In this document: one piece after another, positions 19,594 through 19,664 of the stretch
How positions within the stretch are numbered: position 1 is the first letter of the stretch
Layout: each line of letters begins with the position of its first letter
Source: an uncultured Bdellovibrionales bacterium
GTDB taxonomy: Bacteria > Bdellovibrionota_C > UBA2361 > CAIXSY01
DNA length: 29,641 bases
Assembly: GCA_964510065.1 (NCBI GenBank)
Contig: CAZEAC010000005.1
Span: 61,106-90,746 of the forward strand
Reading direction: 5' to 3'
Position numbers and translations under genes: made by a program
The notes under the pieces: generated by a model
Database searches by the model: none
Seen by the model: the letters and a program-made list of their open reading frames with translations, nothing else
What the model was told of the DNA's origin: nothing

Positions 19594-19664
19594 TGCATAG
19601 GCAGGATTCGAACCTGCTACTGATCGATTCTTAGTCGATTGCTCTACCAATGAGCTACTATGGC
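19594..19664 (-). ncRNA. tRNA-like element (tRNA mimic or pseudo-tRNA, candidate Y RNA-like yrlA-type domain) in the leader of the SPFH-rtcB operon
   Basis: The minus strand folds as a cloverleaf. The D-arm is GCUC-AUUGGUA-GAGC with GG. The anticodon arm is AUCGA-CUAAGAA-UCGAU, giving anticodon AAG with U33 and A37. The variable loop is 5 nt. The T-arm GCAGG-UUCGAAU-CCUGC matches the TΨC consensus exactly. The acceptor stem has only 5 of 7 pairs. An AAG anticodon without a long variable arm is not a functional tRNA-Leu. Confidence 0.55.

Follow-up and report, generated by a model that had tools for sequence, protein, structure and literature searches.

The tRNA-like element on the minus strand at 19594–19664 of the window (the whole stretch of DNA analysed here, 29,641 nucleotides from an uncultured Bdellovibrionales bacterium) is a new case of a known kind, as it belongs to the predicted b7a-tRNA (band-7-associated tRNA) class in the definition given second-hand by 10.1101/312249. 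Judging from the sequence, it is probably the tRNA-shaped core of a leader RNA of ~370 nt, which would be expressed from an RtcR/sigma-54 promoter and would serve as RNA partner of the slipin/RtcB system. What decoding and charging require is lost: no constraint is seen on the anticodon loop, the acceptor stem is unpaired at its top, and the cloverleaf passes at either end into flanking helices.

The cloverleaf, its leader, and the operon

The features of the locus are as follows.
19879–21480, plus strand: RtcR, divergent sigma-54 activator with an RtcR/CARF N-terminal domain (Pfam RtcR and Sigma54_activat).
19847–19880, no strand: 15-nt inverted repeat without mismatch, ATATATTATAGTATA/TATACTATAATATAT, in the interval from the promoter to the rtcR start (repeat search).
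19777–19792, minus strand: sigma-54 (−24/−12) promoter TTGGCAC-N5-CTGCT, GG at 19791–19790 and GC at 19779–19778 (sequence, conservation).
19400–19767, minus strand: whole conserved structured leader RNA, ~370 nt, both ends putative (alignment of seven leaders).
19664–19765, minus strand: 5′ domain, in which P1 (19765–19760 with 19669–19664) encloses P2 and P3 (RNAalifold).
19747–19731, minus strand: hairpin P2 (RNAalifold).
19729–19715 with 19698–19682, minus strand: long hairpin P3 (RNAalifold).
19594–19664, minus strand: b7a-type tRNA-like cloverleaf with frayed acceptor (ARAGORN, RF00005, slipin-proximal covariance model).
19577–19590, minus strand: small hairpin P4, AGAGC-GAAA-GCUCU, directly 3′ of the cloverleaf (in 6/7 relatives).
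19409–19565, minus strand: 3′ domain, closed by the 12-bp long-range helix P5 (19565–19552 with 19423–19409; RNAalifold).
19549–19534, minus strand: P6, in the 3′ domain (RNAalifold).
19530–19521 with 19435–19426, minus strand: P7, in the 3′ domain (RNAalifold).
19517–19510 with 19443–19437, minus strand: P8, in the 3′ domain (RNAalifold).
19400–19408, minus strand: U-run (UUUUUAUUU) that directly adjoins the 3′ strand of P5 (7/7 relatives have a U-run there).
18269–19399, minus strand: soluble SPFH/Band-7 (slipin) gene (ORF start ATG 19399).
16744–18234, minus strand: RtcB RNA ligase gene (Pfam RtcB, E 3e-103).

The Rfam tRNA model RF00005 matches 19594–19664 (−) with 57.8 bits (gathering score 29; E 3.3e-10 for the 29.6-kb window), a result far beyond chance that covers model positions 1–71 with the arms in normal tRNA order. 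ARAGORN reports one tRNA in the whole window, a tRNA-Leu with anticodon aag at 19593–19664 (−). The acceptor strands are 5′ GCCAUAG and 3′ CUAUGCA, the D arm is GCUC-AUUGGUA-GAGC, the anticodon arm AUCGA-CUAAGAA-UCGAU (loop CUAAGAA), the variable loop CAGUA (5 nt), and the T arm GCAGG-UUCGAAU-CCUGC. The element keeps the determinants of the tRNA L-shape, namely U8, A14, G18, G19, the 15:48 Levitt pair, the T loop, and the D stem. In the 7-bp acceptor register, pairs 1-72 (G.A) and 2-71 (C.C) are mismatched; Infernal and RNAfold favour another register, with G1-C71, C2-G70, and C3 bulged. On direct reading of the sequence, no CCA is encoded 3′ of the cloverleaf, where AAU comes next. The cloverleaf is the minimum-free-energy fold of the isolated 75 nt, with an energy z-score of −1.5 that is uninformative alone. 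A BLAST search against plasmids returned ordinary tRNAs only.

An earlier note, made from the letters of this DNA, had described a minus-strand tRNA-like cloverleaf with canonical D and T arms, an AAG anticodon next to a 5-nt variable loop, and mismatches in the top two acceptor pairs. ARAGORN, RF00005, and direct reading bear out each of these observations, the mismatches in the 7-bp register. Its verdict that the element is not usable as a decoding tRNA also holds, given the Leu anticodon on a body with a 5-nt variable loop, the mismatched acceptor, and the lack of an encoded CCA. The sigma-54 promoter that it had placed ~100 nt before the cloverleaf is real, and the cloverleaf begins ~100 nt past the putative transcription start near 19767. 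The GG-N10-GC of this promoter lies at 19791–19778, inside TTGGCACAGTTGCTGCT, and its GG and GC are invariant in 7/7 orthologous leaders; a sigma-70 scan gave weak pattern matches only.

The gene order is RtcR (divergent), sigma-54 promoter, leader, Band_7, and RtcB. RtcR scores 705.7 bits with the NCBIfam equivalog NF038308 (cutoff 650), and the 15-nt inverted repeat may be an upstream activating site for RtcR or an operator. From the end of the cloverleaf it is 193 nt to the ATG of the Band_7 ORF (19399), on the same strand (−); the database version of the slipin protein begins at the second ATG, 19387. This slipin is soluble, and its SPFH core and long helix resemble those of the cage-forming proteins stomatin, HflK/C, and MVP. 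RtcB follows the slipin gene in the window and in all close relatives, and the same layout, with a non-coding gap of 470–580 nt, is found in every close relative examined.

The leader would extend from the predicted sigma-54 transcription start to the U-run. Its structure was obtained with RNAalifold from an alignment of seven orthologous leaders, and pairs were counted against slid controls. The 82 leader pairs are 88.7% paired (40–46% in the controls), and changes on both sides occur in 40 pairs (10–17 in the controls), figures that are inflated because the structure was derived from the same seven sequences as were used for the counting. Twelve helices across the leader are supported by covariation. 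The helices of the 5′ domain are 83–90% paired, with compensatory changes in each, and P5 is 91.7% paired, with both-sided changes in 5/12 pairs. G1 of the cloverleaf is predicted to pair inside P1, and across the seven leaders of the window clade the acceptor stem of the cloverleaf is only 62.5% paired. The U-run is possibly a leaky terminator, an attenuator, or a 3′ end; a simple terminator scan missed it because P5 is a long-range helix. Two other foldings were rejected: the single-sequence minimum-free-energy pairing of the 5′ acceptor strand with CUGUGGC near 19490 is not conserved in the alignment of the relatives, and the two local hairpins that could replace P5 have loops of only 2 nt and are left with at most 3–4 pairs.

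Slipin-proximal elements in other genomes

A tRNA-like element lies 150–900 nt upstream of the slipin gene, on the same strand, in ~105 of the 109 slipin loci with enough upstream sequence, and the slipin proteins at these element-carrying loci are 31–72% identical to that of the window. RtcB is encoded downstream of the slipin gene in only 41 of 89 loci, and RtcR divergently upstream in 18 of 100. Hence, it is the slipin gene that the RNA tracks most tightly. Some elements of this family adjoin real tRNA arrays.

Across 78 such elements, the pairs of the cloverleaf are 93.6% formed, and those of slid controls ~40%. The GCUC/GAGC sequence of the D stem is kept in 77–78 elements, the anticodon and T stems covary, the elbow and core nucleotides are all invariant, and the 15:48 Levitt pair is G:C in 55, U:A in 9, and A:U in 8. 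The anticodon loop has 4–8 nt and shows 21 different triplets, with loops of other than 7 nt in 24/78 elements and U33 in only 52/78; pair 1-72 is unpaired in 53/77. The same freedom is seen among the seven orthologous leaders, where the triplets are AAG, GAU, GUA, UGU, UGU, and UUU, and one loop has 6 nt. The conservation pattern thus indicates that selection acts on the tRNA core, the elbow, and the D stem (which is invariant in YrlA too), and not on the anticodon or the acceptor end.

A covariance model of 62 slipin-proximal tRNA-likes from other lineages (R1, built with the window clade left out) finds the cloverleaf as its sole match in the window, with 72.8 bits (E 8e-23), but it also gives ordinary array tRNAs 50–78 bits and so does not discriminate; for this reason it was not used as a specific criterion of membership. 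The assignment to the b7a-tRNA class rests instead on context and on shared peculiarities, since R1 does not separate these elements from tRNAs of similar type. The context consists of same-strand adjacency to a Band-7/SPFH gene and linkage to RtcB. The element also closely resembles authentic tRNAs and shows homology to other slipin-proximal elements by its R1 score, which ordinary tRNAs reach as well. The peculiarities common to the window element and other slipin-proximal elements are the invariant D stem, the frayed 1-72 pair, and the U15:A48 variant of the Levitt pair.

The domains flanking the cloverleaf are much more restricted. A search with the whole leader (nhmmer) gave full-length similarity in a single locus (L001) and elsewhere matched just the tRNA part, so that at the sequence level these domains are specific to the clade. 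A regular-expression search for the motifs of the 3′ domain (CCAAG...GCGGG...CCUUG) found them in the six close relatives only, and the 3′ domain and U-run of the window clade are not recognisable in gammaproteobacterial loci. A metagenome scan with the slipin protein yielded no additional close relatives having upstream DNA.

Candidate roles of the RNA

The most likely role of the leader, to judge from its genomic company, is that of an RNA partner of slipin and RtcB. Upon activation of RtcR, the leader would be transcribed and fold into a compact multi-helix RNA, whose tRNA-like elbow could be bound by a partner that recognises tRNAs. The best candidate for such a partner is the co-encoded slipin, which would form cages or rings and bind RNA, possibly together with RtcB. 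The resulting RNA–protein complex might organise or regulate RNA repair, in analogy to the Y RNA and Ro60 of rsr-yrlA-rtcB operons. As the closing helix and the U-run stand before the ribosome-binding site of the slipin gene, the leader may be a discrete RNA or a leaky attenuator.

The leader may alternatively be a cis-acting regulatory or processing element, that is, a signal for RNase P or RNase Z, a sentinel substrate, or a source of fragments that could feed back on the CARF domain of RtcR. In the sentinel version, cleavage by an anticodon nuclease, or religation by RtcB, would alter how the closing helix and the U-run fold and, hence, read-through. In 7/7 relatives the RNA does lie between the only recognisable promoter of the operon and the slipin start codon, and the conserved helix and U-run end 10–25 nt before the ribosome-binding site, so that expression of slipin and rtcB needs either read-through or processing. 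RtcR is described as responding to tRNA halves or nicked tRNAs whose ends carry a cyclic phosphate (PMC7790460, PMC10159003), and RNase P cuts the YrlA of M. smegmatis (PMC4201824). On the other hand, an anticodon loop of 4–8 nt and free sequence is unexpected in a specific mimic of a nuclease target, the acceptor stem has 4–6 bp whereas Chen et al. tie RNase P cleavage to a 7-bp stem (PMC4201824), and the Pseudomonas and Xanthomonas loci have no U-run. Moreover, the RNA is also found beside slipin genes with neither RtcR nor RtcB nearby, so that regulation of the rtc operon alone cannot account for the whole family. We regard this explanation as rather unlikely; it is compatible with a role as RNA partner and does not exclude it.

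The earlier note had proposed a YrlA-type mimic, of the kind encoded next to rsr or rtcB. Its general part stands, as the element is a tRNA mimic at an RtcR/RtcB RNA-repair locus, with a D arm and T loop like those of YrlA, and rtcB does lie downstream of the Band-7 gene; the family assignment does not. YrlA is defined by linkage to rsr (Ro60/TROVE), a permuted module, and a match to RF02553 (PMC4201824). In this module a T arm is followed by a closed acceptor stem-loop and a D arm, the equivalent of the anticodon stem leads to the Ro60-binding stem, and the gene lies within ~4 kb of rsr on the same strand (PMC4201824). In the window, no ORF of at least 150 aa has a TROVE domain, and the arms come in the order D, complete anticodon arm, T, and not T, closed acceptor, D. 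The check with the Rfam YrlA model that the note had suggested fails to support it, since RF02553 (gathering score 69 bits) gives no match at E ≤ 10 over 19200–20000, while as a positive control it scores 44.4 bits (E 1e-8) for a module of genuinely permuted order that precedes the slipin gene of a distant locus (L100).

It could still be argued that the element is a Y RNA of YrlA type whose Rsr (Ro60) partner has its gene outside the window, given that its tRNA-like module carries the D-arm and T-loop sequences of the Rfam YrlA consensus, that it belongs to an RtcR/RtcB locus, and that YrlA and b7a-tRNA occasionally exchange protein neighbours (10.1101/312249). In addition, GGCGAAG at ~19727–19721, in the 5′ strand of P3, fits the putative Ro60-binding motif of YrlA, GNCGAAN0-1G. 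The match to GNCGAAG, of which ~0.2 are expected by chance in 370 nt, is kept in only 3/7 orthologous leaders, and it lies in a helix whose pairs covary. The arm order, the lack of a TROVE protein in the window, and the silence of RF02553 make a YrlA very improbable.

Equally improbable is a genuine decoding tRNA, tRNA-Leu(AAG) or other, that would be transcribed along with the operon and gain its mature form through RNase P, RNase Z, and CCA addition. The RF00005 score is inside the real range (array tRNAs have 50–72 bits), the core and elbow nucleotides are intact, some family members sit beside real tRNA arrays, and such elements are annotated as tRNAs (e.g., PA4581.1). Against this stand the Leu anticodon on a class-I body with a 5-nt variable loop, the mismatches at 1-72 and 2-71, the missing CCA, and the predicted pairing of G1 within P1. 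An A34 outside tRNA-Arg also counts against decoding. In addition, the triplets vary among orthologous leaders, one of which has a 6-nt loop, nearly a third of the family (24/78) has loops of other lengths than 7 nt, U33 is often replaced, and the D stem is invariant whatever the apparent identity. Finally, a functionless, decaying tRNA pseudogene kept by chance beside the operon, which the frayed acceptor stem, the odd anticodon, and a badly degraded copy in one relative (L118) might suggest, is already contradicted by the conservation pattern (the same position in ~105/109 slipin loci with divergent proteins, compensatory changes in the stems and the Levitt pair, invariant elbow nucleotides, and conserved flanking helices) and is the least probable explanation of all.

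The reading of the leader as RNA partner of slipin and RtcB can be carried further, to a speculative model to which we give a low probability. The ~370-nt leader would be a discrete, structured noncoding RNA that forms, with the soluble, MVP-like SPFH protein, a cytoplasmic cage- or ring-shaped ribonucleoprotein housing or gating RtcB, a bacterial counterpart of the vault or of Ro and Y RNA. The elbow would be a docking or decoy surface for damaged tRNAs, and b7a-tRNA and YrlA would be circular permutations of one ancestral tRNA-derived cofactor, both recognised by one common factor. The vault particle consists of the major vault protein, vault RNA, and the TROVE protein TEP1; the likeness is one of analogy only.

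Comparison with known RNAs

The function of tRNA-like RNAs within bacterial operons for RNA repair is a question that concerns YrlA/Ro60 and b7a-tRNA/Band-7 alike. The locus in the window is a compact test case, with rtcR and a sigma-54 promoter, the structured ~370-nt leader, and, behind it, the genes for a soluble slipin and for RtcB. The core, elbow, and D-stem sequences are invariant both in b7a-type elements and in YrlA, which points to a shared elbow-binding partner. The matter also has a practical side: annotation of such elements as ordinary tRNAs ("tRNA-Leu-AAG" here, "tRNA-arg4" in P. aeruginosa) distorts tRNA gene counts and inferences on codon usage.

The canonical bacterial tRNA (RF00005) shares with the window element the full cloverleaf and all nucleotides of the tertiary core. 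The differences are the free anticodon, the incoherent identity (a Leu anticodon on a class-I body), and the unpaired positions 1-72 and 2-71.

With YrlA the element has in common the near-invariant D-arm sequence GUAGCUCA..GGUAGAGC and the likewise near-invariant T-loop sequence GGUUCGA, present in both the RF02553 consensus and the window. Both are non-decoding tRNA mimics in rtc loci, without a free CCA end, and the Levitt pair covaries in both. YrlA, however, is circularly permuted and linked to rsr, whereas the window element has the normal order and a full anticodon arm. In this respect it resembles Yrn1 of Deinococcus radiodurans, where D-like, anticodon-like, and T arms follow each other in normal order from the 5′ end. 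The anticodon-like arm of Yrn1 has a 5-bp stem and a loop of other than 7 nt, as is the case for the loops of several b7a members. Yrn1 has traits of its own: its 5′ end pairs with its 3′ end in a helix that binds Ro60, only part of a D arm is present, and Rsr and PNPase bind to it. Neither this end helix nor the partial D arm is seen at the window element.

A case with expression data is PA4581.1 ("tRNA-arg4") of P. aeruginosa, which lies between rtcR and PA4582 (SPFH), lacks CCA, and has atypical D-loop features (PMC13637947). It thus occupies the same position as the window element, the intergenic region between rtcR and the SPFH gene, and neither of the two has a CCA. PA4581.1 is detectable by qRT-PCR at about half the level of normal tRNAs, and its authors treat it as an unusual tRNA and not as a member of a conserved class of noncoding RNAs (PMC13637947). 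Its RNA level is unchanged upon induction of the Rtc proteins (PMC13637947), with which a strictly RtcR-dependent synthesis fits poorly. In the loci examined from related Pseudomonas species, two tRNA-like units lie end to end, and neither the 3′ domain nor the U-run of the window clade is present.

The b7a-tRNA itself was predicted by Burroughs and Aravind in 2016 in front of slipin-RtcB genes and is presented in 10.1101/312249 as a prediction without experimental validation, with the normal arm order and a proposed cofactor function like that of Y RNA. The window element differs from this description in that its cloverleaf is not a free-standing gene but is embedded in a covariation-supported leader of ~370 nt, which adds to the tRNA-like core a 5′ domain with two hairpins, a closed 3′ domain, and a U-run, under an RtcR/sigma-54 promoter.

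The tRNA-like element and its neighborhood

ARAGORN finds a single tRNA-like gene in the 29.6-kb window, a minus-strand tRNA-Leu(aag) at 19593-19664, and the Rfam tRNA model covers 19594-19664 of that strand end to end (57.8 bits, E = 3.3e-10; gathering score 29), which bears out the cloverleaf described in the earlier note. The RNA reads GCCAUAG-UA-GCUC-AUUGGUA-GAGC-A-AUCGA-CUAAGAA-UCGAU-CAGUA-GCAGG-UUCGAAU-CCUGC-CUAUGCA-A. The D and T arms, the anticodon AAG in a 7-nt loop, the 5-nt variable loop, and the mismatches G1.A72 and C2.C71 at the top of the acceptor stem are all present as that note had them, and so is the sigma-54 promoter some 100 nt upstream. 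Infernal and RNAfold favor an equivalent 6-bp register of the acceptor stem, with C3 bulged. The sequence of the element encodes no CCA. Its neighborhood comprises the following features.

19879-21480, plus strand: RtcR equivalog, divergent (Pfam RtcR and Sigma54_activat; NCBIfam 705.7 bits, cutoff 650)
19791-19778, minus strand: sigma-54 promoter, GG-N10-GC
18269-19399, minus strand: Band_7/SPFH protein (slipin), downstream of the promoter and of about 370 nt of non-coding DNA (the leader)
16744-18234, minus strand: RtcB, downstream of the slipin

The module conserved across relatives consists of rtcR, the leader, slipin, and rtcB, and the GG and GC of the promoter are invariant across all orthologous leaders. 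No TROVE (Ro60/Rsr) domain is found in any window ORF of at least 150 aa, and no RtcA among the window ORFs. A gap of 228 nt separates rtcB from the next genes of its strand, which encode an FAD-dependent monooxygenase, an APH-family kinase, and a histidine phosphatase (13415-16516); these are missing at the corresponding position in all close relatives and are therefore probably not part of the repair module. Four ORFs have no Pfam match, at 9320-10750 (minus, 476 aa), 11538-13349 (minus, 603 aa), 2199-3068 (plus, 289 aa), and 3085-3636 (minus, 183 aa); the 603-aa ORF likewise has no match in NCBIfam. A perfect inverted repeat of 15 nt with a 4-nt spacer (19847-19880; ATATATTATAGTATA / TATACTATAATATAT), situated between the start codon of rtcR and the sigma-54 promoter, could serve RtcR as an upstream activating site or be an operator of rtcR. 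A weak sigma-70-like pattern match on the leader strand, TTTGCA-18-TATACT (19856-19885, minus), lies upstream of the sigma-54 promoter and could allow RtcR-independent basal transcription of the leader.

In the AlphaFold model of the slipin (pLDDT 83), the N-terminal region is all-beta, with strands spanning residues 7-121 and 145-219, and is followed by the SPFH core and long C-terminal helices; the model contains no transmembrane helix. The all-beta extension preceding the core is about 145 aa long. Foldseek aligns the whole protein to the major vault protein (E = 1e-10), and also to stomatin and HflK/C. The model fits a soluble oligomeric scaffold.

Conservation of the element among slipin loci

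Loci with slipin homologues were gathered (80 from GTDB genomes, 33 from metagenomes, and those of seven close relatives), and elements upstream of slipin were detected by ARAGORN, a motif scan, and a covariance model. About 105 of the 109 loci with enough upstream DNA have a tRNA-like element on the same strand, 150-900 nt upstream of slipin. Only 41/89 loci have RtcB after slipin, and 18/100 have a divergent RtcR. Hence, the RNA is tied foremost to the slipin gene.

In an alignment of 78 slipin-proximal elements (A4), the cloverleaf is paired at 93.6%, against 35-43% when partners are slid. Compensatory changes abound in the stems of the anticodon and T arms. The D stem, GCUC/GAGC, is the same in 77-78 of the 78 elements, and U8, A14, G18, A21, G53, U54, U55, C56, A58, and C61 vary little or not at all. 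The Levitt pair 15:48 covaries (G:C 55, U:A 9, A:U 8), the window element having the U15:A48 variant. The features needed by a working tRNA are unconstrained across the family: the anticodon loop has 4-8 nt (7 nt in only 54/78), U33 is present in 52/78, there are 21 different "anticodons," and the discriminator base is variable. Because pair 1-72 is unpaired in 53/77 elements and pair 2-71 in 20/78, the frayed acceptor top of the window element is a family trait.

In several MAGs, slipin and its tRNA-like RNA lie inside big same-strand tRNA arrays, with 15-28 tRNA genes within 9 kb (L010, L028, L064, L079; also L013, L017, L020, L021, L032, L046, L087, L093). Some "Leu" tRNAs of these arrays are only 77-79 nt long and thus lack the long variable arm. 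In an Anabaena trcR mutant, the slipin alr0740 is de-repressed along with rtcB and a 26-gene tRNA operon (PMC10272220). Pseudomonas rtcR-slipin intergenic regions contain two abutting tRNA-like units overlapping by 1-3 nt (L035 3583-3728, L048, L055, L057, L062, L066, L067); the "anticodon" loop of the first often has 5 or 6 nt.

Structure of the leader

In the clade of the window (the window, L001, L116, L118, L119, L120, and L122; slipins 58-68% identical to that of the window), the whole interval from promoter to start codon is conserved. The RNAalifold structure, complemented with the acceptor stem, comprises 82 pairs distributed over 12 helices. These are paired at 88.7%, versus 40-46% in slid controls, and both-sided changes occur at 40 pairs, versus 10-17; both statistics are optimistic, as the structure derives from the same seven sequences.

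Elements of the leader (all on the minus strand)
19765-19760 with 19669-19664: P1, pairs the 5' end with the segment that immediately precedes the cloverleaf and encloses P2 and P3
19747-19731: P2, hairpin inside P1
19729-19682: P3, hairpin inside P1
19664-19594: cloverleaf, 3' of P1
19590-19577: P4, hairpin next after the cloverleaf
19565-19552 with 19423-19409: P5, 12-bp long-range helix closing the 3' domain, with P6, P7, and P8 inside
19408-19400: U-run 3' of P5, in 7/7 relatives, with the ribosome-binding site of slipin 10-25 nt further on

The weakest helix is the acceptor stem (62.5% paired), of which the inner 3-5 pairs alone are kept. In L118 (3740-3815) the cloverleaf is badly eroded, with a D stem GUUA/AAGU, a 6-nt loop, and an unpaired acceptor. 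This leader retains the T arm and every flanking helix, which suggests that decay of the tRNA-like core need not entail loss of the flanks.

The 3' part differs in gammaproteobacteria: the cloverleaf is followed by a small hairpin and then by either a GNRA-capped hairpin (UGGUAAAGGC-GAAA-GCC) and a second T-arm-like hairpin or, in Pseudomonas, a complete second tRNA-like unit, with a long variable GC-rich region last. The second T-arm-like hairpin (GGUUCGAnUCC) lies 45-75 nt past the first in more than 50 of about 80 gammaproteobacterial loci (e.g., L020 3570-3640, L030 3710-3760, L012 3550-3620) and looks like a truncated tRNA-like module devoid of D and anticodon arms. Rfam has no family beyond tRNA for the leader regions of either the window clade or the gammaproteobacterial loci.

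Possible role and relation to known RNAs

The element forms part of a larger structured leader and is an RNA module with the shape of a tRNA, conserved and non-decoding. It has a physical linkage to a soluble SPFH gene and, within this lineage, to RtcR and RtcB as well. Activation of RtcR would lead to transcription of the leader. Strong selection acts only on its tRNA-like body and elbow, which may be recognized by a tRNA-binding partner. This would most likely be the co-encoded slipin, possibly with RtcB, in an RNP that, like the one proposed for Ro60 and Y RNA, would serve RNA repair as a scaffold or regulator. As slipin and rtcB apparently have no other promoter, P5 and the U-run may either mark the 3' terminus of a discrete RNA or act as a leaky attenuator. 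The main rival, a purely cis-regulatory or "sentinel substrate" role of the leader, is compatible with such an RNP, but leaves unexplained both the presence of the RNA with slipin where RtcR and RtcB are absent and the freedom of the anticodon loop. A genuine tRNA is contradicted by that same freedom, by the open 1-72 pair, and by the triplets of the seven orthologous leaders (AAG, GAU, GUA, UGU, UGU, UUU, and one 6-nt loop). A dead pseudogene is contradicted by the compensatory changes and invariant core nucleotides across the 78 elements.

The non-decoding module of the window belongs, as a new member, to a predicted class that is known but obscure, the band 7-associated tRNAs (b7a-tRNA), and is not a YrlA RNA; the observation of the earlier note was correct and its yrlA-type interpretation a near-miss. 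According to the Discussion of Wang, Chen, Wolin, and Xiong (10.1101/312249), which summarizes the work of Burroughs and Aravind (NAR 2016), b7a-tRNA is a prediction whose existence lacks experimental validation. In Pseudomonas aeruginosa, "tRNA-arg4" (PA4581.1), between rtcR and PA4582-PA4585, has no CCA and an atypical D loop, and is seen by qRT-PCR at about half the normal tRNA level (PMC13637947, 2026). A covariance model built from other lineages only has its sole match in the window at the element (72.8 bits, E = 8e-23), which favors homology yet is not specific, since ordinary tRNAs also score high.

YrlA RNAs are characterized by closeness to rsr, a GNCGAAN0-1G motif near the 5' end, and the order T arm, closed "acceptor" stem-loop, D arm, the equivalent of the anticodon stem continuing into the Ro-binding stem (Chen et al. 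2014, PMC4201824). In contrast, the arms of the window element follow the normal order D-anticodon-T, there is no rsr in the window, and the Rfam YrlA model RF02553 has no match at E <= 10 over 19200-20000. The model is sensitive: at the distant slipin locus L100 it matches a truly permuted module (44.4 bits, E = 1e-8). A GGCGAAG in the window does match the GNCGAAG motif; it lies in a helix with covarying pairs and is kept in only 3/7 orthologous leaders.

Chains of permuted modules lie about 350-500 nt upstream of slipin in L100 (749-965) and alike in L087-L107, distant AT-rich loci (31-37% identity), in the order T arm, closed acceptor hairpin, D arm, short linker, T arm, closed hairpin, D arm, anticodon arm. 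The RF02553 match spans part of the L100 chain, stays under the gathering score of 69, and lacks the Ro-binding stem. It confirms the adjacency of YrlA-like RNAs and Band-7 genes sometimes seen according to Wang et al. (10.1101/312249). YrlA and the b7a class have in common a near-invariant D arm (GUAGCUCA..GGUAGAGC), the T loop, and a covarying Levitt pair. Four features may go beyond the published descriptions found: that the cloverleaf of this clade is embedded in a leader of about 370 nt supported by covariation; that throughout the family an invariant elbow and an invariant D stem go together with an anticodon loop free to vary and a frayed 1-72 pair; that the class and YrlA have an invariant D arm in common; and that the tRNA-like modules preceding slipin genes include both normal-order and permuted ones.
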